Source: an uncultured Gammaproteobacteria bacterium
GTDB taxonomy: Bacteria; Patescibacteriota; Microgenomatia; Daviesbacterales; UBA10151
Assembly: GCA_964390595.1 (NCBI GenBank)
Contig: CAYMIA010000005.1
Span: 3,586 to 67,585, forward strand
Reading direction: 5' to 3'
DNA length: 64,000 bases
This document shows positions 26,105 through 63,802 of this stretch, one piece after another (the first letter of the stretch is position 1; the number at the start of each line of letters is the position of its first letter). The notes below the pieces were generated by a model. That model ran no database searches. It worked only from the letters and a program-made list of their open reading frames with translations, and had not been told where the DNA came from. Made by a program: the position numbers and the translations under genes.

Positions 26105-26509
26105 ATGTCAGAAGCAGAGCAAGTAAGATATACGCCAGATGAGATTCGCGCAATTAGAGATGAGGCGTGGTTGGCGACAGAGGGCGGTAGGACAAAAGGG
26201 ACTTATCGAACTAGAAGTGGAGAGGAAAGATTGGTTGAAGAGGCATTAGCTGCGTATGAAGAAGCTCTTGGAATTCCCCGGGTAGATTTAATCAGTCAGC
26301 GGGGATTGTTTGCGAATAGAAGTGCGATGGAGTGGCATTTTAGTAGAGGTCATTATGGAGGTTCAACTTTAGAGACTACTTATAGATTGGCGGGAATGTA
26401 TGGTGTGGCGAGTGGGCATCAAACTCTGGCGATAGCTGAACAAGAAGCTATTGATAAAGCAATGGGCAAAAAAGTTCTAGACTCAACAAATTCGGTCAGC
26501 TTATTCTAG
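26105..26509 (+). CDS. hypothetical protein (GC-richer than neighbours)
   Basis: ORF only. Confidence 0.3.
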   Translation: MSEAEQVRYTPDEIRAIRDEAWLATEGGRTKGTYRTRSGEERLVEEALAAYEEALGIPRVDLISQRGLFANRSAMEWHFSRGHYGGSTLETTYRLAGMYGVASGHQTLAIAEQEAIDKAMGKKVLDSTNSVSLF

Positions 26510-27561
26510 TATTTTTGAAGTAGTTTTAAAACTGCGTACTCTTCTTTTTTTAAGTCTTTGGGGGTTTTGCTTAGCTTGAAAATTTCTTCGAAGTGGGGGA
26601 TTAAAATTTTGTTTTGATAGGAGTCGATGATGGTGGGATGAATATAATAGTTGCGGCAAACTGTGGGGGTGTTTCTGAGATGATTGGAGACAACTTTAAC
26701 GGTTTGAATAATATTTTGGTTGGCGATATCATCTGTTTGAAAGTCTCCGAAGTGATAAAGAGTGTCGCCAGATAAAACTGTGGCACCCCAAGTCCGGAAG
26801 TCTTTAGCAGTTACATCTTCACCGGTTAAAGACTTTAAATAATCGTTCACATCAGCTGAGTCGATGGTATGGCGGATGTTGTCATCATCTAGATACTGAA
26901 AGATCTCATAACCTGGGAGTTCGATTAGCTCTTTGATAATTTTAGCGATTTTGGGATGAGTAATTGAAACTGAATGGTGGATGCCGCTTTTACCTTTGAA
27001 TTCAAATTTGATCTTTTGGCCTCTGACAAAAACATGACGGTTGCGCAAAGTGGTTAAACCATAGGAGCTGTTCTCTTTGGCGTATTCATCATTACCAACC
27101 CGGATAAAAGTGTGTTCAAGGAGCCAGATGATGGTAGCGGTTAATTGTTTTTTACCTAGATCTGATTGGTTCATATCTGAGGCGACTTTCTGGCGGATCT
27201 CCGGTAAGACTTGACCAAAAAAAGTCATTTTGTCGAACTTTTTTTGTTGAGTGCGGAGAATCCATTCTGGGTGATAGATATATTGCTTGCGGCCTTTTTC
27301 GTCAAAGCCGATGGCTTGCAGGTAACCCGCGCGGGAAGGGGAGATCCAAACATTTTTCCAAGCTGGTGGGATGGTGAGCTTATTAATCCGGTCATTGGTG
27401 TGAGCGCTGCCAATAACCTTGCCATCCGCGTCATGGTATTTAAAGCTTTTGCCATTTTTTTTGCGGGAGTAACCGGGGTTAGTATCGGGGATGTAGCGTA
27501 ACTTAACTTGGTTGAGTTGGTTGATGAGATCGCTTAAATCGGGTGCAGGCATTAGTTTCAT
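26506..27561 (-). CDS. type IB DNA topoisomerase (poxvirus/bacterial TopIB family)
   Basis: collinear by eye with vaccinia TopIB: IGFDEKGRKQYIYH, GLTTLRNRH, FEFKGKSGIHHSV, KDFRTWGAT, catalytic Tyr context NTPTVCRNYYIHP. Confidence 0.75.
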   Translation of the reverse strand: MKLMPAPDLSDLINQLNQVKLRYIPDTNPGYSRKKNGKSFKYHDADGKVIGSAHTNDRINKLTIPPAWKNVWISPSRAGYLQAIGFDEKGRKQYIYHPEWILRTQQKKFDKMTFFGQVLPEIRQKVASDMNQSDLGKKQLTATIIWLLEHTFIRVGNDEYAKENSSYGLTTLRNRHVFVRGQKIKFEFKGKSGIHHSVSITHPKIAKIIKELIELPGYEIFQYLDDDNIRHTIDSADVNDYLKSLTGEDVTAKDFRTWGATVLSGDTLYHFGDFQTDDIANQNIIQTVKVVSNHLRNTPTVCRNYYIHPTIIDSYQNKILIPHFEEIFKLSKTPKDLKKEEYAVLKLLQKY

Positions 27562-37829: not shown

Positions 37830-39275
37830 ATGCATAAATTTGGATTAGATTTTGGAACGACTAATAGTGCGATTGCCATTGAAGATTCTGGGAGTGGGAA
37901 AGTTTTGGGGATTGATGATTTATCAGTGGATCCAAGAGTGATTAGGTCGATGCTTTATTTTAATAGAAGGGAGATTGTTTATGCTCCCAAAATTGCTCTA
38001 TCCAAGATTAAAATGCAACTTTTTGAACCAGGGGATTTTCACTGGGAGGGAGAGTTCAAGCCTTTAATTGGGGAAGCAGCGATTGAGAGATATCTCTCAG
38101 AAAATAAAAATAGATCCCAGGGAATTAAGCGGACCATTTTTACGGGCCGGATTATCAGCACTGAAACTGGTGAAGAAGTTAAAGGTGGGGCTGGGGCGGT
38201 TAGAGAATATTATGAGGAGATTGATTATGGAACAGGGAGACTTTTGCAGGCTCTAAAGACAGCCCTGAAGTCACCCTATTATAAAGGGACAACTATTTTT
38301 GGTCAGTATTTTTCATTGGAGGAGCTAATTTCAATCTTTCTAGGTCAAATAAAAAAGAAAGCTGAACAGCTTTTGGGAGAAAAGATAGATGAGGTGGTTT
38401 GTGGAAGACCCGTTCATTTTAGGGATGAAGAAGAAAAAGATCAGGCTGCTCAAGGCAGACTTGAGGAGGCACTAAAAAAAGCTGGCTTTAAAAAAATTAC
38501 TTTTGAATTCGAACCAGTAGCAGCAGCGAGGCAGTTTTTATCTCTAGCCACGAAAGGCCTGGCCTTGCGTGCCCAAACAGTGTTTGTGTTTGATTTTGGT
38601 GGAGGGACGCTGGATACAGCGATTGTTAAAGTTAGTCCTTCGACTGGCGCTCAGGATAAAAATGTTTTAGCAGCTGATGGAGTGTATATTGGAGGAGATT
38701 TGTTGAATGCGGATATTTTGAAAGCGAAGCTGTGGAAGTATTTTGGGGCGGAGGCTTATTATGGTGATCAAACGCAATTGATGCCCAGACATATTTATGA
38801 GGCTTTAAATTCTTGGTACTCAATTCCCAACTTAAACAATCCAGTAATGATGCAAATGCTAGAAAGTTTAGCTTATAAAAACACTGATCCAGAAGCTTTA
38901 AAGAGATTAATCTATTTGATTAAATCTAATTTAGGATTTGATTTATATGAGGCGATTGAAAAAGCTAAAAAGGAGTTATCTTCAAAGACAGAATCTGTGA
39001 TTGAATTTTCAAGTGGAATAATTGAGATTCAAGAAAAAATTACTAAGGAGGAGTTTGAAGAGATAATTGAACCGAGAGTGGTGGAGATTAGCCAGACAAT
39101 TTACCGGACTCTTAAAACCGCTGGAGTAGAACCAGAGGAGATTGATGTGGTGGTTAGAACTGGGGGATCAAGTTTGATACCTGTTTTTGAGACTTTGCTC
39201 ATTGAGATTTTTGGTCAGGAAAAGATTCAACAATTTGAAACTTTCACCTCAATTGCAGCGGGCTTAGCTCTATAG
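37830..39275 (+). CDS. Hsp70-family ATPase, nucleotide-binding domain only (YegD-like), no substrate-binding domain
   Basis: MHKFGLDFGTTNSAIAI (phosphate 1), FVFDFGGGTLDTAIVKV (phosphate 2), 481 aa. Confidence 0.65.
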   Translation: MHKFGLDFGTTNSAIAIEDSGSGKVLGIDDLSVDPRVIRSMLYFNRREIVYAPKIALSKIKMQLFEPGDFHWEGEFKPLIGEAAIERYLSENKNRSQGIKRTIFTGRIISTETGEEVKGGAGAVREYYEEIDYGTGRLLQALKTALKSPYYKGTTIFGQYFSLEELISIFLGQIKKKAEQLLGEKIDEVVCGRPVHFRDEEEKDQAAQGRLEEALKKAGFKKITFEFEPVAAARQFLSLATKGLALRAQTVFVFDFGGGTLDTAIVKVSPSTGAQDKNVLAADGVYIGGDLLNADILKAKLWKYFGAEAYYGDQTQLMPRHIYEALNSWYSIPNLNNPVMMQMLESLAYKNTDPEALKRLIYLIKSNLGFDLYEAIEKAKKELSSKTESVIEFSSGIIEIQEKITKEEFEEIIEPRVVEISQTIYRTLKTAGVEPEEIDVVVRTGGSSLIPVFETLLIEIFGQEKIQQFETFTSIAAGLAL

Positions 39276-48991: not shown

Positions 48992-51900
48992 ATGAACGAT
49001 TTAATTGATTTCGAAGCCTTAGAAGTAGCGATTGCGAGCCCAGAGATGATCCGGGGTTGGAGTTTTGGTGAGGTGACCAAGCCAGAAACGATTAATTACC
49101 GGACTCTCAAGGCTGAAAAAGATGGACTTTTTTCCGAGAATATCTTTGGACCAACTAAAGATTTTGAATGTTACTGTGGAAAATACAAAAGAATCCGTTA
49201 CCGTGGTGTGATCTGCGATAAATGTGGTGTGGAAGTGACTCAATCCAAGGTCCGCCGTGAGAGGATGGGGCATATCTCTTTGGCTGCTCCAGTGGCCCAT
49301 ACCTGGTATGTTAAAGGTGCACCAAGCAAGTTGTCTTTGATTCTCGATTTAACTATGAAGAATCTGGAAGCGGTCATCTACTTTGCATCCTTTCTGGTAA
49401 CTGAAGCTGACGATGAGGGCAAAAAGCAGGCATTTGAAAAGTTGACAAAAGACTTGGAAGAGAAAAAAGAGGCTCATAAAAGGATAGTGGAAGAGGTTGT
49501 TGAGGTCAAGGAAAAAGAGATTCAAAAAGAGCTCGAGGGCTTAAAGAAAAATACTAAAGATAATGACAAATTTGAGATGGCTGCCTCAGATTTGCAGCTT
49601 AAGAGCAGACAAGAGATTGCTAAGATGCGGGAGCAAAATGCCAAAGAGTTGGCTCAAATCGAGGAGATTTATAATGCAGTTTCTGGTTTGGTAAAAAGTG
49701 TGACCGCTTTAAAGCTGTTGTCCGAGGAAGAGTACTATAAGCTAGAAGAGTATGGAGTGGCTGATTTTGTAAAGGTGGGTATGGGCGCGGAAGCGCTGCT
49801 CGAGGTTTTGAAAAAGATTGATTTAGATAAACTAGCCTCATTTTTGAGAGAAGAGGTGGCTAAATCTTCTGGCCAGAGGCATATTAAAGCAACCAAAAGA
49901 CTGCGGTTGGTGGAAGGGATGAGAGGGGCGAAGATCGATCCAGCCTGGATGATAGTTAGCGTTTTGCCTGTTTTGCCTCCTGATTTACGCCCAATGGTGC
50001 AGCTGCCTGGAGGAAGATTTGCAACTTCGGACTTAAATGATTTGTACAGACGGGTGATTAACCGGAATAACCGGTTAAAGAGGTTAATTGATCTGGGGGC
50101 ACCAGAGATTATCTTGAGAAATGAAAAAAGAATGCTGCAAGAAGCAGTTGATTCATTAATTGATTCTTCAGGACGGACTTCCAGACGGGGTGGAGCTGGT
50201 GGACATCAGCTCAGATCTTTATCTGATATGCTTCGGGGTAAACAGGGCCGGTTTAGGCAGAATCTATTGGGAAAAAGAGTCGATTATTCAGGGCGGTCAG
50301 TTATTATCGTTGGTCCGAAACTGAAGCTAAACCAGGTTGGCTTGCCAAAAGAGATGGCTTTGGAGATCTTTAAGCCATTTGTTTTGCGGGAGATGATGAC
50401 CCGGGGGATTGCTTCAAATGTAAAAGGAGCTAAGAATGTGTTGGAGCTTCGTCCGCCTGAGGTTTGGGATATTTTGGAAGAGGTGATTGAGGGACATCCG
50501 ATTTTGATTAACCGGGCACCAACTTTGCACCGGTTAGGTATTCAGGCTTTTTATCCAATTTTGATCGATGGCAACGCGATTCAAATCCATCCATGTATTT
50601 GTGCTGGATTTAATGCAGACTTTGATGGTGATCAGATGGCGATACATGTGCCTCTCAGCAAACGGGCGATTGAAGAGGCGCAAACTTTGATGATGGCTAA
50701 GGAGAACTTGCTTTTGGGTTCCGATGGTTCACCAGTGAACATTCCTAATCGTGAGATGGCTCTGGGAACTTATTATGTGACTTCAATTAATCAAAATATT
50801 GTACCCTTGGATAAAGTTTTAGACAAACAAGAGGCGGTTTTGGCCTACCAAGTGGGTAAATTGAACCTGAGGCAACTGTTTAAGTGCCGGATGGAGAGTG
50901 GTGAAACGCTCGATACAACTGTTGGAAGGTTACTGTTTAATAGCTTCTTGCCTGAGGAGCTAAGGTACGTTAACGAAGCAGTCCGGGGTGGTGGGATTAA
51001 AGAGATTATTATGAAGGCGTTTAAGAGATTTGACCGGGATGCGGTCGCTAAATTGGTTGATGATATTAAACAGTTTGGTTTTTGGGGATCAACTGTATCT
51101 GGGTTGTCACTGGCTATTTCCGATAACAAGATAATCCCGGAGAAGGGTCAAATGATTGCGGATGGTGATAAAGAGATTTCGGAGATTGAAGATAATCTTA
51201 AGAAAGGTTTAATCACCAATGAGGAAAAGCGGGCTTTGGCTCAAGAGGTTTGGACTAGAATTGGTGAGGAGATCGCGAGGAGAACATTTGCCTCTATTGA
51301 GCCGGATAATCCGATTCAGGTGATCATTCAATCTGGGGGAGCCCGGGCGACATCAGAGCAGATCAAGCAGGTTTCGGGAATGAGAGGATTTTCAGTTGAC
51401 GCGACGGGCCGGATTGTGGAGTTGCCAACTAAGTCTAATTACCGTGAAGGCTTGGGAGTGTTTGAATACTTTACATCCTGCCGCGGAGCTAGAAAAGGGG
51501 TGGCCGACCGGGCTATCCGAACGGCTGATGCTGGATATTTGACCAGACGTTTAGTTGATGTCTCACATGATGTAATTATCCGAAGAGAAGATTGCGGGAC
51601 TCAAAATGGCTTGACGCTACCAGTTAGCAAAGAGAATTTTAGCTCTAATATCGCCAGATTCTTGGGTAGAAAACTGTTGCAAAAGATCGTTGATCCCAAA
51701 ACCAAAACGACGATCGCAGGTGTTGGTGAGCACGTTGAAGAAGATCAAATTCAAGCGATCGTTAAGGGTGAGGTAGAAGAGATCACTGTCAGGTCACCGT
51801 TGACTTGTGAGGCTAAATTCGGAATTTGTGCTGCGTGTTATGGACTTGATCTATCAACTAGAAAACCAGTCGCACTTGGAGTGCCAGTTGGAGTAATTGC

Positions 51901-52699
51901 CGCTCAATCCATCGGTGAGCCTGGAACACAGTTGACTATGCGGACTTTCCACACTGGTGGAGTTGTGGGTGTGGATATTACTCAGGGTTTGCCTCGAGTA
52001 GAAGAGCTTTTTGAGGCGAGAACTCCAAAAACAACGGCTTCGATCTCTGAGATCGCTGGTAAAGTGACTATTTCTGAAACACCTGACGGGCGGGTAATTC
52101 GAGTTAGGACAACGACTAAGCCACATGAAGAAAGAGAATATTTGGTACCTATGGCAAGCACCTTGCAAGTTGAAGAGGGTGATTTGATCGCGGCAGGTAC
52201 ACCACTATCCTTGGGTCATTTGGATATAAAAGAGGTTTTGCGAATCAAAGGTCTTAGAGAAGCGCAGCGCTACATCGTTGATGAAGTACGCAAAGTTTAT
52301 GAAAGCCAAGGCCGGCCAATTAATGAAAAGCATTTTGAGGTGATTGTGCGCAAGATGTCTGATAAGGTTCGGGTTGAGAGTCAGGGCGATACAGCGCTGT
52401 TGCCTGGTGAGATTATTGATAGAAATAGATTTGAGGATGAGAATACTAAAATCTTGGCTGAAGGTGGAGATCCATCAACAGCTGGAGTGGTGGTTTTGGG
52501 TATTACTAGAGCATCTTTGCAAACAAGTAGCTTCTTGTCGGCGGCTTCCTTCCAGGAAACCACGACAGTTTTGGCGGACGCGGCTGCCTCTGGGGCAGTT
52601 GATCATTTGATTGGGTTGAAAGAAAATGTTATCATTGGCCGGCTGATTCCAACCAGTCCAGACCGGGTGATCGAGGGCGAACTGCCAGAAGCAGCATAA
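48992..52699 (+). CDS. rpoC: DNA-directed RNA polymerase beta' subunit
   Basis: zinc finger [37 protein letters not shown] catalytic motif, 10-nt gap after rpoB. Confidence 0.9.
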
Positions 52700-52702
52700 G
52701 TT

Positions 52703-53143
52703 ATGCCAACAATTAATCAATTAGTTAAAAATGGTCGGGCACGAAGAGTTAAAAAGATCCGGGGAACGGCTCTGCGGAGATCTTACAACGCTAAAGACCG
52801 AGTTTATGATACTAACTTTAACCCACAAAAACGGGGGGTGGTGACTTTGGTCCGGACGATGACACCTAAGAAACCAAATTCAGCTTTGCGGAAGGTAGCT
52901 AGGGTCAGACTGTCTAATAAAACTGAGGTGACAGCTTATATTCAGGGTGAAGGTCATGATTTAGCTGAGCATGGAATTGTGCTAGTACGTGGTGGGAGAG
53001 TGAAAGATTTAGTTGGGGTAAAATATCATTTGATCCGTGGTAAATTGGACTTGGGTGGAGTTAAGAACCGTAAGAAATCCCGGAGTAAGTATGGTACAAA
53101 AAGAGCTTCAGGAGGAGCTAAAGCAGCTGCAGCTGCTGCATAA
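52703..53143 (+). CDS. rpsL: 30S ribosomal protein S12
   Basis: [12 protein letters not shown]...[18 protein letters not shown], Ala-rich C-terminal extension. Confidence 0.9.
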
Positions 53144-53147
53144 ATAA

Positions 53148-53624
53148 ATGAGAGCAGGTAAAGTTAAGAGACGAATTCTGGACCCAGATCCAATTTATAA
53201 TTCTAGGCTCGTGACCAGGTTTATTAACCGGGTGATGCAAGATGGTAAAAAATCAGTGGCTCAAAGGATAGTTTACAAAGCTTTTGAAGAGATTGAAAAG
53301 CAAACTGGCAAAAATCCAGTGACTGTTTTTGATGGAGCGATTGCGAACGCTTCCCCAAAGATGGAGGTTAGACCAAGAAGGGTAGGTGGAGCTTCTTATC
53401 AAGTACCTGTTGAGGTTAGAGGAGATAGAAGAGAGGCCTTGGCGATTAGATGGTTGATTGCTGGAGCGCAAGCTAAATCTAATAAAGAGTTTAAAAGCTT
53501 TTCTAATAAGTTAGCTCAAGAGCTAATTGATGCAGCTAATGGGCAGGGTGTAGCGATTAAGAAAAAAGATGATGTGCTAAGAATGGCAGAAGCAAATAAG
53601 GCTTTTTCGCATTTCCGCTGGTAA
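53148..53624 (+). CDS. rpsG: 30S ribosomal protein S7
   Basis: PDPIYNSRLVTRFINRVMQDGKKSVAQRIVY..., ends ...AFSHFRW. Confidence 0.9.
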   Translation: MRAGKVKRRILDPDPIYNSRLVTRFINRVMQDGKKSVAQRIVYKAFEEIEKQTGKNPVTVFDGAIANASPKMEVRPRRVGGASYQVPVEVRGDRREALAIRWLIAGAQAKSNKEFKSFSNKLAQELIDAANGQGVAIKKKDDVLRMAEANKAFSHFRW

Positions 53625-53635
53625 GTTTAAACACC

Positions 53636-53740
53636 AAGGCCTGGCCTTGCGTGCGTGATTGAGCTCTTCGAGTCCGAGTGACCTCAGAGTCGAGGACTTG
53701 CAAGGTCTCACCCTGTTGAAACTAAATTGAAAACTTGACT
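53636..53740 (+). repeat. intergenic hairpin repeat R1 (core 53651-53712 identical to 63693-63754), with imperfect 13-bp hairpin CTTCGAGTCCGAG-TGAC-CTCAGAGTCGAGG and outer CCTTGC/GCAAGG stem
   Basis: 62-nt exact identity with second copy 10 kb downstream, plus ~20 nt of similar 3' tail ending in TTGACT. Confidence 0.6.
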
Positions 53741-53762
53741 GGGGGAGGTTTGCGGGTATAAT
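53735..53762 (+). promoter_or_regulatory. sigma70-like promoter TTGACT-16 nt-TATAAT, driving the gene block inserted between rpsG and fusA
   Basis: consensus hexamers 7 nt upstream of ORF 53769; the -35 lies inside repeat R1. Confidence 0.4.
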
Positions 53763-53768
53763 CATGTT

Positions 53769-54173
53769 ATGGCAGATAGAGAGCCGATTATTCCCAGACT
53801 AGAAGAGCAATTCCCTGATGAGAATTTGGCGAGTGCAGCAGTTAGGGAGATTAAAGATCCAGAGGGGATGTTTCAATTTATAGGGGAGTATGTTTCAAAA
53901 ATGGTTAGGGATGATGATTTTGCCGAAGAGTATGCCTCTGATATTGCCCATGAGAATATTGGGTATTTTTTAGGTTCATATGATGAGGAAACTGCCAGAG
54001 CCTGGTTTGCTGCATTACCAGATCTAAAACATCCATATTTTGATAGAGAAGTAGTTATTGATTTGGATGAGGTTAGGGAAAGAGGTAGGTTGAATGGGAT
54101 TAAGGCAGAGAGGATGAGAAAGTTGGCAGCAAGGGGCTTTCGAATAATTGAGGGAGGTAAGTCAGATTCGTGA
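53769..54173 (+). CDS. hypothetical protein
   Basis: ORF only. Confidence 0.4.
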   Translation: MADREPIIPRLEEQFPDENLASAAVREIKDPEGMFQFIGEYVSKMVRDDDFAEEYASDIAHENIGYFLGSYDEETARAWFAALPDLKHPYFDREVVIDLDEVRERGRLNGIKAERMRKLAARGFRIIEGGKSDS

Positions 54174-54335
54174 AAGAATATTTATTCAAATGGTTAAAAG
54201 AAGATAAGTTGGCGTTAGAAGCAGGGATAGGATTGACTGCAGTACTTTATAGGTCTTTGCTTTATTCCCGGTTTGGAACTAGAGAGAATTTTAATAGAAC
54301 AGTTTTTGGGTGGAGAAGAGGGTGGAGGATGATGT

Positions 54336-54806
54336 TTGGCGATGTCTAAAAAGATTACCCTGGCAGTTTTAGCTTTAATTATTCTGGCAGTTTTGGTTTT
54401 TTTGTACACCCGTTTGCCCAATGATGATTCAATGGCTTTAAAAACATCTCCTAAGCCTTCAACAACTTCAGCTTCTTCTTCAGCCCAACTGAAAATCGAA
54501 GATACTAAACAAGGTTCAGGCGTAGCTGTTAAATCTGGAGACACTGTAGTGATGAATTATACTGGAACTTTGGAGGATGGGACTAAATTTGATAGTAGTT
54601 TAGACAGGGGTCAGCCTTTTGAAACCAAAATTGGGACAGGTGAGGTGATTAAGGGTTGGGATCAGGGAATTCCAGGAATGAAGGTTGGTGGGAAGAGGAG
54701 GTTAACTATTCCTCCTGAGCTGGGATATGGAGCTGAGGGTTCGCCACCAAAAATTCCACCCAATTCAACTTTGATCTTTGATGTTGAACTTTTACAGATA
54801 AAGTAA
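54336..54806 (+). CDS. FKBP-type peptidyl-prolyl cis-trans isomerase, signal-anchored
   Basis: [21 protein letters not shown]...[38 protein letters not shown]...LIFDVELL. Confidence 0.75.
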
Positions 54807-54818
54807 TAACCTTAACGT

Positions 54819-55202
54819 ATGTTTGATGAAAGCAATGAGATTGGTAAAACTCCCGAGTTAGTGGACAGAGAGAAAAAGCTGGGCCGGATTCACAATTTAA
54901 AGGGCAGACTCGAGCAGTTTGTGGCGGGAAAAGGGATTCCTAAAGAGGGTGCGGATTTGGCAGATTTTGAAGTGATAGCAGCTGATTATAAAGACTTGAG
55001 TGGAGTGTCGGAGGATGATGCAAAGACCATCTTGCAAGCGGGTTTGGATTTAAGAGAGGCAGAAAAAAAATATAATGAAGCTCCAGAGGGTGATGGGAAA
55101 GACCGTTTAAGAAGAGATTTGGAAAGGTTGAAAGTAGTGGAGCCAGGTTTGAAAGAAATTGAACGGGGAATGATTGAAGATAAATTAAAACAGGCTGATT
55201 AA
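54819..55202 (+). CDS. hypothetical charged protein
   Basis: ORF only. Confidence 0.35.
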   Translation: MFDESNEIGKTPELVDREKKLGRIHNLKGRLEQFVAGKGIPKEGADLADFEVIAADYKDLSGVSEDDAKTILQAGLDLREAEKKYNEAPEGDGKDRLRRDLERLKVVEPGLKEIERGMIEDKLKQAD

Positions 55203-55264
55203 CTCTTGCTAGATTATTACTAAATTCTAGGCTTATTCTCAATCTTTTCTACTAATATGGGACT

Positions 55265-55474
55265 ATGGATAGTTCTATGGTGACTACTTTTGATTGGAGG
55301 TGGCTTTTGCCACTGGTGGTATTACCGGTAGTGGTTTTACTGTTTTGGCCAGTAGAGAAAAACCGGGACCGGATTGAATATGATTATGGTAAGGGAGTAA
55401 TTTATCATGATATTAACCCCAAGAAAAAAAAGAAGTTTATCCGCCGGAACCGCCTAAATAGAAAAACGCCTTAA
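55265..55474 (+). CDS. small membrane protein with basic C-terminal tail
   Basis: TM WRWLLPLVVLPVVVLLFW; KKKKKFIRRNRLNRK tail. Confidence 0.3.
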   Translation: MDSSMVTTFDWRWLLPLVVLPVVVLLFWPVEKNRDRIEYDYGKGVIYHDINPKKKKKFIRRNRLNRKTP

Positions 55475-55552
55475 TCTTACCTTTTCCTTACCCAACCTTT
55501 CTTTTTATCTTACTTTGTTTGGTTACGATAATTAAGGAATTATCAAAAAGAA

Positions 55553-55580
55553 GGCGAGAAGACGGACTCGCCTTTTTTTA
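55553..55580 (+). terminator. intrinsic terminator GGCGAG-AAGACGGA-CTCGCC + TTTTTTT
   Basis: perfect 6-bp GC-rich stem, 8-nt loop, T7 run. Confidence 0.75.
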
Positions 55581-55589
55581 TGCTAGAAT

Positions 55590-56330
55590 TTGGTAATGCC
55601 CTATTTTAGGAGTTCCAACCAGCTTGGGTTTGCGCCACTTTTTATTGTGCTTATTGTAGGTTCAATAGTTTTGGCTGGTGGTTTAATCTTTTATTTTAGC
55701 CGCAGCTCTAGTTCAGCTTTGGTGAGTAAACCTGGCGAGGCAGTCTCCACTCCAATGGAGGTGCCTCATGAACTGCCTTCTATTTCTCCTGGGGCATCAG
55801 TTGGGCCTCTTCCTTCAGGATGTGGCAAAGATTGTCAGGCTTATATTGACCTCCGGTTAGATACAGTTAAAAAAGATCTGCTAAAACAATTATCAGCTAG
55901 CGCCTTACCTTCCTCAACTGCAGTGGTGGGGACCCCTATTCCTCAAGCCTCTGCTGCAGTCTCTGCTCCCAAGGAGTATTACATTAGTTTGGGGGGAGGG
56001 GCTTCCACAACCTCAACTGCTTTTGTGGATATTCAAGGATCAGATTTTAAATTTGATCCAGGAAATTATCCAGGAGCGAGGGCTTTTTATTTTCAAGCCA
56101 TTTTAGTTTCAGATGCGCCTGACAAAGAGACTTTTGCTAGGCTTTATGATATCACTCACAACGTGGGGATTATTAATTCAGATATAAAATACAAAGGACT
56201 CAGCCCATCTTTGACTGAATCTGGGGCTTTGAACTTTTTTGCTGGAGTTCTGACTTTAAGAGTGCAAGTCCATGGGTTGGATATTAATTCAGCTTCAGTT
56301 TTAAATCCAAGAATTAAAGTAGTTTATTAA
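55590..56330 (+). CDS. signal-anchored secreted hypothetical protein
   Basis: N-terminal TM, Ser/Ala-rich linkers. Confidence 0.4.
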   Translation: MVMPYFRSSNQLGFAPLFIVLIVGSIVLAGGLIFYFSRSSSSALVSKPGEAVSTPMEVPHELPSISPGASVGPLPSGCGKDCQAYIDLRLDTVKKDLLKQLSASALPSSTAVVGTPIPQASAAVSAPKEYYISLGGGASTTSTAFVDIQGSDFKFDPGNYPGARAFYFQAILVSDAPDKETFARLYDITHNVGIINSDIKYKGLSPSLTESGALNFFAGVLTLRVQVHGLDINSASVLNPRIKVVY

Positions 56331-56432
56331 ACTTCCAGATAATGTTGGCAAATGTTTTTGGGAGGCTTTATGATGTTGATATCAGTATTGTGACAATTGT
56401 TAATCCAAGGATGAAAAATTTCTTATTAAATT

Positions 56433-56461
56433 TTGACAATCCTTTTTAATCTAATTATGAT
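56433..56461 (+). promoter_or_regulatory. sigma70-like promoter TTGACA-17 nt-TATGAT upstream of 56468
   Basis: hexamers and spacing. Confidence 0.35.
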
Positions 56462-56467
56462 TAGCGC

Positions 56468-57742
56468 ATGGTTGACTTTAATGAGATAGAAAGCCAATGG
56501 GCAAGGGAGAATGCTGCTAGGTTGGGCAGGCATTTTGAGCGCTCTCAAGATGCTCTAATGTGGGGTGGTCATGCAGCAGCGATGGGGCGTCAAGAAAATT
56601 TGTTAAGGGAACTTTTAGAAGAACAAAGGAGGTCTAACCCATATTATGTTGATCCTGAAGTAGCGGGACTTAAAGCTACAATAGCTGCAGATAGAGAATA
56701 TATTAGACGACTTCAAGAACAATTAGGGGGTAATTCAGATTTAACTAAACTGAGAGCTGAACTCGCCGCAAAAGAGGTAAGAATTAATGAACTAAGGGTG
56801 AGGATTAGTATTCAGGATTCGGAGATAAAAGATTTAAAGAATCAATTAGCAAAAAAGGGTGAGGAAGGTGAAGTTTTAACTCCGGTTCAAGAGAAAACTT
56901 ATGAAGATGTATTTGCTCAGGAAGATACTGCTCATGAACAATCTTATGAAGATCTTTTTGTCGGTGAAGACGTAACAAGATACGAAACTAGGTCTAGATT
57001 AGGAACTGTTGCGGATGTATCTAAGGTGGGTTCTTTGGCGGATCTATATTTCCATAAAACAGGTTACTACCATTCCAGATTATCAGTTTCCATATCCGGA
57101 GCAATGAAAGATTATTATGATAGTTTAAAGGGCCCAGAATCTTTTTTAGGTTTGCCTGTTAGCAATGAGTATAGAAGACCTGATGGAGTAACTATGATTC
57201 ATTTTGAGGGAGGGGTTATGTTGAATCATGGGGTAGAAGGATATCCAGCCATAGCTGTAGGTGCCCCTGTGGATCGAAAAATTGCGGACATATTTGCTTT
57301 ATGGACGATCTTACATTGGGATGGATTAAGCCAACCCAGAGGTGATTCAAATATTGAGATTTCTAGTTTTTTGACAGAAGCTTTGACACAGCATTTTATT
57401 GGAGATAATTTCGAAGGTGCGATGTACCGTCATTTGACAGGTCCTTACAAAACTTATACATGCGGTCTATCTGGTGACATTTTTAAATATTATAGGGATA
57501 TAATGGGAGGTTCTAAAGGGATTTGGGGATTGCCAATTTCTAATATTGAGAGAGAAGGCAGAAATCTGGTAGTCTATTTTGAGAATGGAATGATGCTTAG
57601 AAATATAGATGGGGAGATTAAGCTGCAAGAATTTAGTGAGCTTAAAAGCATATTGAAAGATCCAACTGAATTTGCTGTGCCATTTGTTTCTTTTCCTGGA
57701 GAGTCTGTTGCTAAGGGAAGCGAGTTGATGATTCTGGATTAG
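56468..57742 (+). CDS. coiled-coil protein with C-terminal LGFP-like repeats (cell-wall associated?)
   Basis: repeats GPESFLGLPVSNEYRRPDGVTMIHFEGGVMLNHG and SKGIWGLPISNIEREGRNLVVYFENGMMLRNIDG; N-terminal heptad region. Confidence 0.45.
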   Translation: MVDFNEIESQWARENAARLGRHFERSQDALMWGGHAAAMGRQENLLRELLEEQRRSNPYYVDPEVAGLKATIAADREYIRRLQEQLGGNSDLTKLRAELAAKEVRINELRVRISIQDSEIKDLKNQLAKKGEEGEVLTPVQEKTYEDVFAQEDTAHEQSYEDLFVGEDVTRYETRSRLGTVADVSKVGSLADLYFHKTGYYHSRLSVSISGAMKDYYDSLKGPESFLGLPVSNEYRRPDGVTMIHFEGGVMLNHGVEGYPAIAVGAPVDRKIADIFALWTILHWDGLSQPRGDSNIEISSFLTEALTQHFIGDNFEGAMYRHLTGPYKTYTCGLSGDIFKYYRDIMGGSKGIWGLPISNIEREGRNLVVYFENGMMLRNIDGEIKLQEFSELKSILKDPTEFAVPFVSFPGESVAKGSELMILD

Positions 57743-57790
57743 ATGTGGTGTCAAGTGTTTTTGGGAGGTTTTTTTGGTAAAATATGAGAC

Positions 57791-58732
57791 ATGTCAGATG
57801 ATTTTGAAGTGTTGCTTTTTTACAAGTACATTAAGTTAGATGATCCAGAGGCAGTGAGGCTTTGGCAAAAGGGGCTTTGTGAGGCTCTAAACTTAAAGGG
57901 TCGGATTATCATTGCCCCAGAAGGGATTAATGGAACTGTGGAGGGGCTAAAAAAAGAGACTAGGCTGTATATTAGAAAAGTTAAAGAGTTTTTAAAGTTT
58001 AAGGATATCTCTTTTAAGAAAAGCATAGGAAGCGGTCAGGCTTTTTCCAAACTTTCGGTCAAAGTTAGAGAAGAGATTGTAGCAACTCATTTTGAAAAAG
58101 ATGTAGCCAGCCGGATTCAAAAAGTTGGAAAGTATGTCAATGCAGATGAATTGCATAAATGGTTTGAGGAGGAGAAGGAATTTTATATTGTGGATATGCG
58201 CAATGACTATGAACAAGATGGTGGGTATTTTAAAAATTCAATTTTGTCTGGATTTAAACAGTTTTATGATCTGCCAGAGATTTTGCCAAAAATTGAACAT
58301 TTAAAGGATAAGATAATTGTCCCAGTTTGCACTGGCGGAGTAAGATGTGAGCGGGCATCTTTGTTTTTGGAAGAGAATGGATTTAATCAGGTTTATCAAC
58401 TCAAGGATGGAATTCATAGTTATATGCAAAAATACCCCAATGAACATTTTAAGGGGGTTTTGTATGTTTTTGATAATAGATTGATAGTTGGATTTAATTT
58501 AGATAATCCGGAAAGAGCAGTTGTAGGTAGGTGTAAAATGTGTCAGAGGCCATCAGAGAATTATGTTAACTGCGCTTATGATTTTTGTCATTTGCACTAT
58601 ATTTGTTGTCCAAATTGTTTAGACAAAGAAACTGGTTTGCCTTTTGATAAAACAGAGTGCAAGCAGATTTTTCTGCAAACTGGAGGTACCTCCAAGGGTT
58701 TAATCAGAAGGACTGTTGAATATATTGGATAG
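57791..58732 (+). CDS. trhO: rhodanese-domain tRNA U34 hydroxylase TrhO (UPF0176/YceA family)
   Basis: LLFYKYIKLDDPEAVRLWQKGLCEALNLKGRIIIAPEGINGTVEG; rhodanese Cys loop CTGGVRCERA; C-terminal Cys cluster. Confidence 0.7.
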   Translation: MSDDFEVLLFYKYIKLDDPEAVRLWQKGLCEALNLKGRIIIAPEGINGTVEGLKKETRLYIRKVKEFLKFKDISFKKSIGSGQAFSKLSVKVREEIVATHFEKDVASRIQKVGKYVNADELHKWFEEEKEFYIVDMRNDYEQDGGYFKNSILSGFKQFYDLPEILPKIEHLKDKIIVPVCTGGVRCERASLFLEENGFNQVYQLKDGIHSYMQKYPNEHFKGVLYVFDNRLIVGFNLDNPERAVVGRCKMCQRPSENYVNCAYDFCHLHYICCPNCLDKETGLPFDKTECKQIFLQTGGTSKGLIRRTVEYIG

Positions 58733-58746
58733 AGTATAATTAAAAG

Positions 58747-59205
58747 ATGAGTTATGCATTGGAGCAGATACAAGCTATTTTGGAAGAACATGCCAGTGAG
58801 TTGGGTTTTGGAGAGGTGGTGCACAGGCATCCGGCTAGTTATTTAGATTTAGTTGATGTAGTGGTAGGACCAGTTGATTTAATTAGCTCTCCAGAGGAGT
58901 TGCAGCATTTTGCAGTTGGTTTATTAGGTGGACTTCCTAGATTGGTATATAAACAGGAGGCTAGACGAGAGAAGAGGATCCATCCAACTTATGGTCACAT
59001 CCTGATATTTGATCTGCCTAAATTTGGGGTTGGTGATGCGACTGTCAGCTTTTTCCCTAACGGAGAGATCGCCCAAACTGCAGCTAAAGTATTTAAGAGG
59101 CCAATGATAGAGAGGGGTTGGGAATATGATCTAACCCGCAGAGGAATATTAACTGATTTGGAGTGGCATCTGATAACTGAGGGTAAGAATCCGTTTAAGG
59201 AGTAA
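58747..59205 (+). CDS. hypothetical protein
   Basis: ORF only. Confidence 0.35.
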   Translation: MSYALEQIQAILEEHASELGFGEVVHRHPASYLDLVDVVVGPVDLISSPEELQHFAVGLLGGLPRLVYKQEARREKRIHPTYGHILIFDLPKFGVGDATVSFFPNGEIAQTAAKVFKRPMIERGWEYDLTRRGILTDLEWHLITEGKNPFKE

Positions 59206-59241
59206 CTGGTGGTTTTAGAGCAAAGATGATAATCTGAGGAT

Positions 59242-59847
59242 ATGCGGGAGCTTTTGATTGAGTTTATTGGGACTTTTTTCTTGGTTTTGATAGTTGCGCT
59301 AACTGGTAACCCACTGGCTATTGGGGCAATTTTGATTGCAATGGTTTATATGGGGGGTTATATCTCTGGAGCTCACTATAATCCAGCAGTGACTTTGGCA
59401 GTTTGGATGAATAAAGGGATAAAAACTGAGTTAGCGCTAAAGTATGTTGGGGTACAGCTTTTGGCGGGTATTTTAGCTAGCGCAGTATATTTTTTGGTAA
59501 CTAAGAGTTATTTTATTCCCTCTCCAGCTACAACAACCAGCCCTTGGGTGGCTTTGCTTTGTGAAATCCTTTTTACTTTTGTGCTGGCAACAGTGGTGCT
59601 TCATGTAGCAGCTTCTAAAGAGAGCCAGGGTCATGACTTTTATGGATTGGCGATTGGCTTAACTGTAATGGCAGGGGCTTTTGCTGTTGGAGCAATCTCT
59701 GGAGGAGCATTCAACCCAGCAGTTGGAATAGCTCCGCAGCTGTTTGACCTGGGGCATTTAGGAAGTCATATTTCCAATATTCTGCTTTACCTAATAGGTC
59801 CTTTGGGTGGAGGAGCGCTAGCGGCGTTAGTATATAAACAGAGATGA
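59242..59847 (+). CDS. aquaporin/MIP-family channel (short form)
   Basis: two NPA boxes [10 protein letters not shown] and [10 protein letters not shown]. Confidence 0.75.
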
Positions 59848-60233
59848 AAAATATGTCTGATGAGGAGTGGAAGAAGAAGCTAACTTCTGAGCAATATCAT
59901 GTTTTGAGAGAGAAGGGAACAGAGATTCCTTTTACAGGTAAATATGTTAACAATCACGACAAGGGGGTCTACGAGTGTGCTGCTTGTGGTGCTCCCCTAT
60001 TTTCTTCAGATACCAAGTTTGATTCAGGGACTGGTTGGCCATCTTTTGATAATCCGATGAATACTGAGCATATAATTTTGCAAGATGATGACTCTTTAGG
60101 GATGCATCGGACTGAGGTGATCTGTAAAAACTGTGGTTCGCATTTAGGGCATGTTTTTGATGATGGTCCCAAGCAAACGACTGGCAAAAGATATTGTATC
60201 AACTCTTGTGCGCTAAATTTTAAAGGTCAGTAG
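59844..60233 (+). CDS. msrB: peptide-methionine (R)-S-oxide reductase MsrB
   Basis: CAACGAPLF...GWPSF...[21 protein letters not shown], two CxxC pairs. Confidence 0.85.
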
Positions 60234-60265
60234 TTGAGGTAGTTTTTTCTGTTATCATAGATTTA

Positions 60266-60772
60266 ATGAGAAGTTCTCAGAGAGGGTCGGTCTTTTTAGT
60301 GCTTTTGATCCTGGGGCTTTTGATAGCTGTTTTTGTCGGATTCTTAGTTTACCTTCAAAATAATTTTGAGGAAGTGAATCAGAGCTCAACAGTTTATTCA
60401 GATATCAGTACTGATGGTTGGAAAACATATCAAAACGATGAAGTTAATTTCTCTATAAAATATCCAACCAACTGGAGCTTAAAGGTTTCAAATTATAATT
60501 ACGGTTTAAAAATTGCTCATTTGGAAGGAGATTCTGGGCGAGTGGATTTAATGTGGGGGGGAAGTTTTGGGGGAGTTTGTGATAAATATGAGAAAATTAA
60601 GATCCGCGATGAGTCATTGCTATCCTGCCATTTTGTGAAAAATGGAATTGAAAGTTGGGAACAGATTAACAAAAACACTAGAAGTGGTCAATTTTCAGCC
60701 AAAGCTTACGCCAACACCTTTGCTGACCGCCAGTTAATCTTAAACATGATCGGAACTTTGAAATTCTTTTAA
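60266..60772 (+). CDS. signal-anchored secreted protein of the KYP-motif family (NFSIKYPTNW)
   Basis: same architecture and motif as 21008-23203 paralogs. Confidence 0.45.
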   Translation: MRSSQRGSVFLVLLILGLLIAVFVGFLVYLQNNFEEVNQSSTVYSDISTDGWKTYQNDEVNFSIKYPTNWSLKVSNYNYGLKIAHLEGDSGRVDLMWGGSFGGVCDKYEKIKIRDESLLSCHFVKNGIESWEQINKNTRSGQFSAKAYANTFADRQLILNMIGTLKFF

Positions 60773-60795
60773 GAGAAGTTTTTAAAATAATCTAT

Positions 60796-60824
60796 TTGAC
60801 TTTTGGAATCAAACCAGATAAGAT
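60796..60824 (+). promoter_or_regulatory. sigma70-like promoter TTGACT-17 nt-TAAGAT
   Basis: hexamers and spacing; followed by hairpin+T-run before the next ORF. Confidence 0.3.
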
Positions 60825-60837
60825 TGGTGCATCAATT

Positions 60838-60864
60838 CTCCCCCTGAAACGAGGGAGATTTTTT
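60838..60864 (+). terminator. hairpin CTCCC-(loop)-GGGAG followed by ATTTTTT; terminator of the preceding gene or leader attenuator of the GreA-N-like ORF
   Basis: 5-bp stem, T6 run. Confidence 0.45.
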
Positions 60865-60880
60865 AAAGGTAAGGAATAAA

Positions 60881-61129
60881 TTGATGACAGATAACAAACA
60901 ACTTGAAGCTAAGATCCAATTATGGAATAAAAAGCTTGAAGCATTAAAAAAAGAATATGAGAGGATCATGAAGCTTCGGGGTGAGGCAATGCTGATGGGT
61001 GATTTGCGTGAGAACGCCGCTTTCCAAATGGCTGATGAAGATGCGAGTACCTATCAAGTGCGGATTGATGAGGTTGAGGCGATTATTAAAAAGCTGGAAC
61101 TAGAAATGGGAGGGAAGGCTGGTAAGTAG
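60881..61129 (+). CDS. GreA/GreB N-terminal coiled-coil domain-only protein (82 aa)
   Basis: GDLRENAAFQMADEDAS matches GreA N-domain motif GDLSENAEYxAAKEEQ; coiled-coil heptads; no C-terminal FKBP-like domain. Confidence 0.45.
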   Translation: MMTDNKQLEAKIQLWNKKLEALKKEYERIMKLRGEAMLMGDLRENAAFQMADEDASTYQVRIDEVEAIIKKLELEMGGKAGK

Positions 61130-61141
61130 GTCGACAATATT

Positions 61142-63280
61142 ATGGCTGCAACTAAGACAAACCGGGAATTCCCGTTAGACCGGATTCGGAATATTGGCAT
61201 TATTGCCCATATTGACGCGGGTAAGACTACCACTACTGAACGGATTTTATTCTACACTGGGCGGACTTACAAAATTGGTGATATTGATGAGGGAAATACG
61301 ACAACTGACTGGATGGAGCAGGAAAAAGAGCGGGGAATTACGATCGTTTCTGCGGCGATCACGACTTTCTGGATTCCCAAAGATGGTCCTTATAAGGATC
61401 AAGAGACCAGAATTAACTTAATTGATACCCCAGGACACGTTGATTTTACAGTTGAGGTTGAAAGATCGCTACGTGTGCTTGATGGTGGAGTAATTGTGCT
61501 TGATAGTGCTTCAGGTGTGCAATCTCAAACTGAGACAGTTTGGCGTCAGGCGGATAAATACGGGGTACCTTTGGTAGCTTTTTCTAACAAAATGGATGTA
61601 GTTGGGGCAGACTTTTTAGGAACAATTCAAAGTGCCCGGGACCGATTGGGTGCTAATGCAATTGCTTATAATTTACCAATTGGTACTGAAAATGATTTTA
61701 AGGGAATTGTTGATCTACTAACTAAAAAAGCATTAGTTTGGCAGGGAGATGAGACTGGAGCAAAGTTCGTTGAAATTGAGATTCCTGCTGATATGGTGGA
61801 TTTAGTGGAAGAGCATAGAAATAAATTAATTGAAGAGATTGCGGCGACAGATGAGACTTTGCTGGAAAAATATTTGAATGGTGAGGAGATAGCAGTTAAT
61901 GATCTCAAGTTAGCCTTACGGGCAGCTGTGATCGCTAAAAAAATTGTGCCTGTTTTGGCTGGATCTTCGCTGCGGAATAAAGGTGTTCAGCCGATGTTGG
62001 ATGCGGTGATTGAATACTTGCCTTCACCACAGGATATCTCACAAATTAATGGTAAAAATCCACGGACCGAAGAAGAGGAGACCAGACAGCAAACCAAAGA
62101 GGCGCCTCTGGCAGGCTTGGCTTTTAAAATTCAGGTTGATCCACACGTTGGCCGCTTAACTTATGTCCGGGTTTATTCTGGAACTTTGAAATCTGGTTCT
62201 TATGTTTATAACTCAACTAAAGGGGTCAAGGAACGGGTGGGACGGGTGCTTTTAATGCACGCGAATGATAGAGAAGAGATTGAGGAGGCTTATGCAGGAG
62301 AGATCGTGGCTGTTGTGGGTCTTAAAGACACTATTACTGGGGATACTTTATGTGATGAGAGTGCGCCGATTGTTTTAGAGTCAATTACTTTTGCAGAACC
62401 AGTTATTTCTTTGGCGATTGAACCTAAGACTAAATCAGATCAAGAAAAGTTAGCTTTGGCTTTGCAAAGACTGTCTGAGGAAGATCCAACATTTAGAGTG
62501 AAGACTAATCATGAGACTAATCAAACGATCATCTCTGGTATGGGTGAGCTGCATTTGGAGATTATTGTGGACCGGATGAAGCGGGAGTTTAAGGTGGAGG
62601 CCAATGTGGGTCAACCACAGGTGGCTTACAGAGAGACAATTACAAAAATAGCGGTAGGTGAGGGTAAATATATTAAACAAACTGGTGGTCGGGGTAACTA
62701 TGGGCATGCTGTGGTTAGAATTGAGCCCTTGCCACGCGGACAAGGCCGCGAATATGTGTCAGAGATCGTTGGTGGAGCGATTCCTAGGGAATATATTCCA
62801 GCGATTGAAAAAGGGGTGACCGAGAGAGAGGATACAGGAATTTATGCTGGTTTTCCAGTGGTGGATATCAAAGTAGCAGTTTTTGATGGCTCTTTTCATG
62901 AGGTTGATTCAAATGAGATGGCGTTTAAAATAGCTGGATCAATGGCGCTAACTGATGCGGCAGCTAAAGCTGATCCAATTTTGCTTGAGCCAATTATGAT
63001 GGTGGAGGTCTCCACCCCAAAAGAGTTTATGGGCGATATTATTGGAGATCTATCTTCAAAAAGAGCCCAAATTTTGGGCACTGAAGAAAAGGGGAATGGA
63101 TCAATTGTCAAAGCATTGGTGCCTCTAGCTGAACTTGGTGGTTACATTACAACAATCAGGTCAATGTCCCAAGGAAGGGCCAGTGCTTACATTGAGCCAC
63201 ATGACTATCAACCAGTTCCTGCAAACATTGCTGAAAAGGTCAAAGCAGCTTCTGGGTTTACAGGAAGGATGGAAGCTTAA
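61142..63280 (+). CDS. fusA: translation elongation factor G
   Basis: [35 protein letters not shown]-domain motifs; full five-domain length. Confidence 0.9.
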
Positions 63281-63306
63281 AAGCTGGTGTGATACACTGA
63301 ATTTAA

Positions 63307-63642
63307 GTGAAGTTTTTAAGAATTATATTAATTCTCTTTTCTACAATTGGAATTTCTCATTTTGCAGAATTAGTTATTTCTCAGCTATCTTTTCTGTTAA
63401 TAGGTCGAGGAGTTGCGACTTGTGCTGGTATAGATATAATTTTTTGCGGAGGAAGCCAAACATTTAATAGACGAGCTTTCTCAATTGTCTTATATTTAAT
63501 ACTTGTCCCAATATATTATTTTGCATTCAGCAAATTTTTAATTCATCATAAAATACTTCTTATTTGTGTTTCTGTAGTTGCAATCCTTTTGGCATTTTTG
63601 GGGATTTTTGTGTGGCTAATTGGCGATACTTTTATCGGTTAA
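63307..63642 (+). CDS. small membrane protein (3 TM)
   Basis: hydrophobic ORF. Confidence 0.35.
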   Translation: MKFLRIILILFSTIGISHFAELVISQLSFLLIGRGVATCAGIDIIFCGGSQTFNRRAFSIVLYLILVPIYYFAFSKFLIHHKILLICVSVVAILLAFLGIFVWLIGDTFIG

Positions 63643-63692
63643 TTTTATCCAGCGCTTTACAAGATATGTATTTGTCTGAAGGTTGTTTTTTT

Positions 63693-63774
63693 GTGCGTGA
63701 TTGAGCTCTTCGAGTCCGAGTGACCTCAGAGTCGAGGACTTGCAAGGTCTCACCTGTTTGAAGCTAGATTTGAC
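63693..63774 (+). repeat. intergenic hairpin repeat R2, second copy of R1
   Basis: 62-nt exact match to 53651-53712, then diverged tail ending in TTGACT. Confidence 0.6.
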
Positions 63775-63802
63775 TTGTCAATGAGTTCAATTGATTGGTG
63801 GT

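Follow-up and report, generated by a model that had tools for sequence, protein, structure and literature searches.

Two direct copies of a 62-nt sequence lie about 10 kb apart in the rpsL-rpsG-fusA cluster of a Candidatus Daviesbacteria (Microgenomates) metagenome-assembled genome (MAG), within a stretch of 64,000 nt (contig CAYMIA010000005.1, positions 3,586 to 67,585) which we refer to as the window. The core of the repeat, GTGCGTGATTGAGCTCTTCGAGTCCGAGTGACCTCAGAGTCGAGGACTTGCAAGGTCTCACC, is found on the + strand at 53651-53712 (copy 1) and, without a single difference, at 63693-63754 (copy 2), the two starts being 10,042 nt apart. The original prediction had drawn attention to this identity, and reading both sites bears it out. 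The two-copy repeat is real, is not the product of chance and is strain-specific. It is a fairly ordinary low-copy intergenic repeat, so far specific to one genome in public data. We would give about an even chance to its being a strain-specific duplicated intergenic boundary module, made of an imperfect hairpin of about 62 nt and of promoter-upstream DNA ending in a -35 hexamer, and resulting from the rearrangement that placed a block of genes between rpsG and a greA-like/fusA unit.

The copies and the inserted block

When the two copies are aligned along with their flanks, homology begins abruptly at the left edge of the core, whose 5' end reads GTGCGTGA. The sequences upstream of it are unrelated (GGCCTTGC vs GTTTTTTT), and a run of seven T is found just 5' of copy 2. 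On the other side, homology continues from the core into a tail, CTGTTGAAACTAAATTGAAAACTTGACT in copy 1 (53713-53740, + strand) and TGTTTGAAGCTAGATTTGACT in copy 2 (63755-63775, + strand). The tails align over 29 columns with 18 matches, 2 substitutions and 3 indel events, and both close with TTGACT (53735-53740 and 63770-63775), as had been predicted, except that the final T of copy 2 falls at 63775 and not 63774. The core and the tail are clearly heterogeneous, with no event in 62 nt for the former vs 5 events in 20 aligned positions for the latter (p = 6e-4). Within the 64-kb window, a 30-nt sub-pattern allowed up to 3 mismatches matches the two copies only, where none would be expected (100 shuffles). 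No further copies were detected in the window by BLAST with a word size of 7 or by a covariance model (R1), which scores copy 1 at 110 bits and copy 2 at 108 bits; the next-best matches of this model have E values above 0.4 and lie inside genes.

The left side of copy 1 has a peculiarity of its own. A 19-nt stretch, AAGGCCTGGCCTTGCGTGC (53636-53654), made of the palindrome AAGGCC-T-GGCCTT followed by GC and the first 4 nt of the core, is present at copy 1 only and is exactly matched at 38554-38572 (BLAST E = 3e-5), inside an Hsp70-like open reading frame (ORF; 37830-39275) in which it encodes KGLALRA. There is no homology beyond this match on either side, nor any at the other boundaries of the repeat.

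Copy 1 comes after rpoC (48992-52699), rpsL (52703-53143) and rpsG (53148-53624), its core starting 27 nt 3' of the rpsG stop codon. The original prediction placed the repeats after rpsG and after fusA; Pfam confirms the identity of both genes, but copy 2 does not directly follow fusA (61142-63280, + strand), being 413 nt past its stop codon with a lineage-specific hydrophobic ORF of 111 aa (63307-63642, + strand) in between. It is the stop codon of that ORF that precedes the core of copy 2, by 51 nt. Both copies are thus in the same orientation relative to upstream transcription. On the 3' side of copy 2, a single minus-strand frame is open to the window end and was not called a gene.

We compared this region with five Daviesbacteria str loci (L001 and L081 to L084), the best rpsG relative among species genomes being a Daviesbacteria MAG (76% identity) and the homologues of elongation factor G (EF-G, the fusA product) at 79-88% identity also being Daviesbacteria. 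In the two closest loci, L083 and L084 (EF-G 88% identical), a 253-nt spacer separates rpsG from the greA-like gene and fusA, with no block of other genes. The window spacer found immediately upstream of the greA-like gene (60773-60880) is orthologous to the promoter and leader of the relatives (z 4.2 and 7.8); no such orthology to their spacers is seen for the spacer that contains copy 1 (z -0.4). None of the block proteins is found in the str regions of the relatives. Because the closest relatives lack the block, and because the leader is orthologous and the copy 1 spacer is not, the DNA from about 53625 to 60772 is, by gene order and spacer homology, an insertion with respect to the nearest genomes. 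Copy 1 is located exactly at its left edge, and on the right the insertion adjoins the ancestral greA-like/fusA promoter. The MAG path retains the order seen in all relatives, rpsG and eventually greA-like/fusA. Synteny with the relatives is not regained in the 246 nt of window past the core of copy 2, and neither tuf and rpsJ nor the filler or post-fusA genes of the relatives are present in the window.

The 7.2-kb strain-specific block (53769-60772, + strand), not found between rpsG and greA-like/fusA in the closest relatives, starts with a 134-aa ORFan, an FKBP gene and four ORFs without known function (127, 69, 246 and 424 aa), and continues with a UPF0176/rhodanese gene, a 152-aa ORF also without known function, a MIP channel gene, msrB and a PsbP-like gene. 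As the ORF beside copy 1 is an ORFan, the region upstream of it has no counterpart with which it could be compared elsewhere. Between the 69-aa and 246-aa ORFs is a symmetric hairpin (55543-55582) with an A-run on one side and a T-run on the other, AAAAAGAAGGCGAG...CTCGCCTTTTTTT. Its shape is that of an intrinsic terminator for both directions, located within the inserted block. The block is followed by the ancestral unit that the repeats also enclose (60884-63642, + strand), consisting of the greA-like gene, fusA and the 111-aa ORF.

Identical direct repeats of some tens of nucleotides bracketing about 10 kb with strain-specific genes recall the attL and attR sites of genomic islands. However, ARAGORN finds no tRNA or tmRNA gene in the window whose 3' end either copy could represent, and no integrase, recombinase, transposase, phage or defence gene was found in 53769-63642 with Pfam, PHROGs and PADLOC, nor did any turn up in the rest of the window. 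The composition of the block is native, with a GC content of 0.394 vs 0.407 for the window and a mid-range tetranucleotide distance. A genomic island or prophage was rejected on these grounds. Furthermore, unlike what is seen with att sites, part of the bracketed DNA is ancestral, namely the greA-like/fusA unit and its leader, only 53625-60772 being missing from L083 and L084; the repeats therefore do not delimit the inserted DNA.

The original prediction saw in the repeat a dispersed element of the repetitive extragenic palindromic (REP) type, or of the bacterial interspersed mosaic element (BIME) type. More generally, it could be a small non-autonomous mobile element, one of a multi-copy family of 62-90-nt intergenic sequences mobilised in trans by a transposase such as a RAYT or one of the IS200/IS605 type. 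An imperfect intergenic palindrome with an abrupt 5' boundary and unrelated flanks is what such an element would look like, both copies are located where gene order departs from that of the relatives, and two copies per 64 kb would translate into tens per Mb if evenly spread. Both copies are nevertheless in one 10-kb neighbourhood, with none in the other 54 kb even by covariance model, and no recombinase, transposase or RAYT was found among the approximately 45 window ORFs scanned with Pfam. Conservation of the structure in relatives, which the prediction had raised, was also checked, and the element is absent from the five Daviesbacteria str loci by pattern, BLAST and covariance model. Outside these loci, the 22-mer of the hairpin tip has no match in IMG/VR, in 185,579 species-representative genomes or in JGI metagenomes, the 21-mer of the 3' arm has none in IMG/VR, and blastn against plasmids and phages gave no match. 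The 20-mer of the 5' arm matched five metagenome contigs, but identity ends with the 20-mer, in GC-rich coding DNA, and these matches were rejected as chance.

REP elements, 20-40 nt long with a conserved GTAG-type head, are present in hundreds of copies, many of them paired in inverted orientation (BIMEs), and are associated with RAYT transposases. The repeat resembles those of Enterobacteria and Pseudomonas in being an imperfect intergenic palindrome just 3' of stop codons, which might form a hairpin at the 3' end of mRNAs and serve as a recombination substrate. It differs from them in having a 62-nt core present as two direct copies, with no GTAG head, no RAYT in the window and no copies in the other genomes searched; the + strand carries both of them, 10,042 nt from each other, and they form no inverted pair. 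The Correia repeat enclosed elements (CREE) of Neisseria have 26-nt terminal inverted repeats, duplicate a TA target and exceed 100 copies. As is the case for CREE, we are dealing with a short intergenic repeat that would form a hairpin in read-through transcripts, provides promoter hexamers for the next gene and sits at gene-order differences, but neither terminal inverted repeats, target duplication nor high copy number are seen here. Nor does the repeat qualify as a miniature inverted-repeat transposable element: the ends of the core pair as GTG/CAC only, and the flanks share no target-site duplication. A literature search returned nothing relevant on intergenic repeats in Daviesbacteria or Microgenomates. 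By the features examined, the dispersed REP/BIME-like element of the original prediction is not supported, and a mobile or REP-like origin seems unlikely.

Hairpin, fold and promoter

The core contains the imperfect 13-bp hairpin that had been described from its sequence (arms 53666-53678 and 53683-53695, loop TGAC), which is present in every predicted fold. The hexamers CCTTGC (53645-53650) and GCAAGG (53700-53705), said to form an enclosing stem in copy 1, were both located there and in that copy only. The fold as a whole is not exceptional: the 62-mer reaches -21.0 kcal/mol on the + strand (z -1.07 vs dinucleotide shuffles) and -19.0 kcal/mol on the - strand (z -1.00), and in their context copy 1 has a z of -2.6 and copy 2 a z of 0.0.

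A structured RNA under purifying selection would be another way to account for the repeat. It could act in cis, as a processing or stability site in the 3' untranslated region of rpsG and of the fusA unit (an RNase III-type target, or feedback by a ribosomal protein or EF-G), or in trans, as a small RNA encoded in two copies. Such a role would fit the lack of any difference over 62 nt beside a diverged tail, the location of both copies shortly past stop codons (27 and 51 nt) and their shared orientation relative to upstream transcription, the slight advantage of the + strand fold (one G-U pair better than the - strand, -21 vs -19 kcal/mol) and the presence of the repeat in a translation-factor operon. 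Against it, the z-scores of the fold are not significant, gene conversion accounts for the identity without selection, and the repeat is not conserved in the five Daviesbacteria str loci, though the neighbouring greA-like leader is. Rfam gave no match at gathering score over the whole window and none at E<=10 around either copy, which, together with the empty ARAGORN result, led us to reject a known RNA family. A scan of the region found no promoter-like site 5' of either core and no terminator 3' of it; an independent small RNA gene was rejected, as the copies have no promoter or terminator of their own in common. The small RNA that the original prediction had suggested is accordingly not supported by the fold and Rfam checks, and a structured RNA in the broader sense is improbable. 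A coding role was rejected as well, no ORF frame being common to both copies on either strand and the tails being offset by indels of 1 nt and 7 nt.

The suggestion that the repeat is a terminator-plus-promoter cassette holds for the promoter part, and for copy 1 only. A stem-loop shortly past a stop codon is reminiscent of intrinsic terminators, but the sequence 3' of the stem, ACTTGCAAGG, contains no U-tract, in contrast to the canonical terminators used elsewhere in this genome (GC-rich stems followed by T6-T8) and to the greA-like leader. Neither copy is listed by the terminator scan, and an intrinsic terminator was rejected. Relatives also have hairpins without U-tracts just 3' of rpsG, which are not homologous to this one. 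In L083 (1273-1525) and L084 (3725-3977), the spacer between rpsG and the greA-like gene contains another module twice in tandem, with an 8-9-bp hairpin rich in A/T and then GCTACGTKGMTCTTAARGCTT; hairpin modules have therefore been duplicated locally after rpsG in other Daviesbacteria too.

The TTGACT closing the tail of copy 1 was predicted to be the -35 of a TATAAT promoter. This site, P1 (TTGACT-16-TATAAT, 53735-53762, + strand), matches 11 of 12 positions of a sigma-70-type promoter with a 16-nt spacing and is the best promoter-like site in the 11.4 kb scanned. Its -35 is supplied by the tail of copy 1, and only 6 nt separate its -10 hexamer from the ATG (53769) of the first ORF downstream, the 134-aa ORF of the block, which is the layout of a strong leaderless promoter. 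Such layouts are common here: a TATAAT-like hexamer lies 5-8 nt 5' of the start codon at 17 of 69 gene starts in the window, vs a background of 2.1% (12-fold enrichment), and a Shine-Dalgarno-like motif is found at only 7 of the 69. Judging from these motif counts, leaderless expression is the norm in this genome, and P1 is very probably real. The sigma-70-type layout is confined to the tail of copy 1. In copy 2, the -35-like TTGACT has neither a usable -10 nor a start codon in register, and it is absent from the promoter scan list.

Recombination between the copies and origin of the repeat

Recombination between direct repeats leads to deletion or duplication of the intervening DNA, not to its inversion. 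The prediction that the repeats could mediate rearrangement of the enclosed segment consequently stands for deletion (or duplication) and falls for inversion, given their direct orientation. Tandem amplification between direct repeats, such as rrn operons or insertion sequence copies, is known from Salmonella and E. coli, and RecA has a minimum of about 25-30 nt. The 62-nt repeats exceed this minimum, have the same orientation and flank a dosage-relevant segment. As direct repeats of this length, they can serve RecA-type recombination, by which the 10,042-bp unit carrying fusA would be deleted, released as a circle or duplicated in tandem.

One contig from Logan, where the 134-aa ORFan is also on record, seems to show just such an event. 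Contig L090 (SRR9179559_2352867, 1,751 nt) consists of window positions 63466-63754 joined to 53713-55174, at 100% identity. It runs from the left flank of copy 2 through the core into the right flank of copy 1, a junction that would be expected if the 10,042-bp unit formed a circle or were duplicated in tandem. This raises the possibility of an active recombination module, the unit existing as an excised circle or a tandem amplification (through an att-like or homologous-recombination site) of which L090 would be the junction. Two other Logan contigs, L091 and L092, confirm the continuation of the block into greA-like/fusA, and in an exact-protein look-up 6 of 11 proteins inside the unit were recovered in Logan vs 3 of 19 outside (p = 0.04).

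Logan is built with k = 31, its contigs being non-branching paths after a SPAdes-like graph simplification in which each 31-mer occurs once per accession (PMC12424806). In such a graph a repeat of 62 nt collapses into one node, so that a contig passing through it provides no linkage at the level of reads; all it shows is that the other two edges are absent or were pruned. As coverage of the organism is low in those runs, where 16-37% of the tested sequence was recovered overall, missing edges are likely, and the L090 junction is most probably a low-coverage artefact of the k = 31 graph. The six recoveries inside the unit form only two patches, and patches are no denser inside (0.20 per kb) than outside (0.23 per kb); over-representation of the 10-kb unit was rejected, the gene-level excess vanishing once independent patches are considered. 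Unlike demonstrated cases of duplication between direct repeats, the join is known here from a k = 31 contig and is accompanied by no depth excess. In addition, no recombinase is found in or beside the unit, and the unit holds the only fusA seen, with its ancestral leader. We consequently regard an active recombination module as very unlikely. There is just as slight a prospect that the 62-nt repeats are working sites of gene shuffling in the candidate phyla radiation (CPR), the unit, with the only fusA seen along with FKBP, MsrB and aquaporin genes, being excised or amplified in the natural population and loading strain-specific blocks into the spacers of the Daviesbacteria ribosomal super-operon.

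The difference between the Logan path and the MAG path also raises the question of an assembly artefact, the contig having been mis-joined at the repeat and the true genome having a single copy or another arrangement. With E for the repeat, B for the DNA between its copies and A and C for the outer flanks, a graph in which A and the end of B lead into E, and E into the start of B and C, fits A-E-B-E-C and A-E-C plus a circle equally well; the alternative arrangement would be, for example, A-E-C with a separate B-E molecule. The four flanks are distinct and real, however, and the tails are different; Logan provides the flanks at the end and start of B at 100% identity, the rpsG flank and the tail of copy 2 being known only from the MAG contig. 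Moreover, reads of 100-150 nt span 62 nt and modern assemblers resolve such repeats, the order rpsG then greA-like/fusA in all relatives matches the MAG path, and a chromosome without fusA is implausible. An artefact of this kind is highly improbable.

A duplicated boundary module remains our preferred explanation. The repeat would go back to ectopic recombination, or to duplication of a segment, at the time when rearrangement brought the 7.2-kb block of native-looking genes to its place. Copy 1 would have been recruited as the upstream half of the promoter of the block, and copy 2 would be a promoter-dead duplicate at the 3' end of the greA-like/fusA/111-aa ORF unit, where the synteny of the relatives also stops. 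Both hairpins are 27-51 nt past the last stop codon of a co-directional string of genes and, if active, might function as REP-like 3'-end hairpins (transcript-end stabilisers or insulators) rather than as canonical terminators; from its position, such a role at operon ends is plausible. The 62-nt identity beside a diverged tail could result from gene conversion, with a tract that stops on the left where homology ends, or from selection on the hairpin.

Several observations weigh against this explanation. The contrast between core and tail is weak when substitutions alone are counted (p = 0.057). The fold of the 62-mer is no better than that of shuffled sequences, and the two copies are identical in the core, with no compensatory changes that would support an RNA role of the hairpin. 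To the right of copy 2, the 65-aa fragment of the minus-strand frame has no database counterpart. The window covers 64 kb of the genome, so that further copies may lie elsewhere.

The str cluster of Daviesbacteria

The DNA between the block and fusA contains two conserved features. The first is a leader upstream of greA-like/fusA, present in all five Daviesbacteria loci examined. In the window (60796-60864, + strand) it consists of the ancestral promoter TTGACT-17-TAAGAT (60796-60824) and of a hairpin followed by T6 (60837-60864); its counterparts are at 1432-1525 in L083, 9696-9777 in L081, 9600-9691 in L082 and 5165-5254 in L001. The promoter is TTGACT-17-TAAGAT or TAATAT, only the -10 TAATAT being visible in the stretch of L001 examined. 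The hairpin (C/U-rich...GGAGG, -9.5 to -14.6 kcal/mol) has U6-U8 directly 3' of it, and its outer stem varies while its pairing is kept (TCTCCC/GGGAGA, ACCTCC/GGAGGT and AGCCTTCC/GGGAGGCT). The leader has no match in Rfam. It looks like a promoter-proximal terminator or attenuator that would control EF-G expression. The second feature is a protein of 72-81 aa made of the GreA/GreB N-terminal coiled-coil domain only, encoded directly 5' of fusA in every Daviesbacteria locus examined. In the window, it is the 81-aa greA-N-like mini-gene (60884-61129, + strand), with the GreA N-terminal domain only. It looks like a conserved mini-GreA that would be co-transcribed with EF-G.

Away from the cluster, the window encodes a bacterial type IB topoisomerase (26506-27561, - strand; Topoisom_I and Top1B_N_bact domains), in what is a small CPR genome.

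The spacers of the cluster itself are variable. In the other three loci, L081, L082 and L001, different filler genes occupy both the position between rpsG and greA-like and the one after fusA. The rpsG-fusA and fusA-tuf spacers of the Daviesbacteria str cluster thus contain genome-specific, mutually non-homologous ORFs, with filler ranging from none to 3.8 kb in the relatives and reaching 7.2 kb in the window. By this comparison, the two spacers are hot spots for filler genes in Daviesbacteria.

As it stands, the repeat matters little in itself, as it is not conserved beyond one MAG. It has some modest value as a marker for the left edge of a strain-specific 7.2-kb insertion in an otherwise conserved rpsL-rpsG-fusA cluster, and it illustrates how the spacers of this cluster in Daviesbacteria act as hot spots, each genome having its own filler genes with their own leaderless promoters. 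Should the unit truly be circularised or amplified, it would provide a documented example, of which there are few, of repeats altering the copy number of an essential gene for a translation factor, in an uncultured bacterium with a reduced genome.

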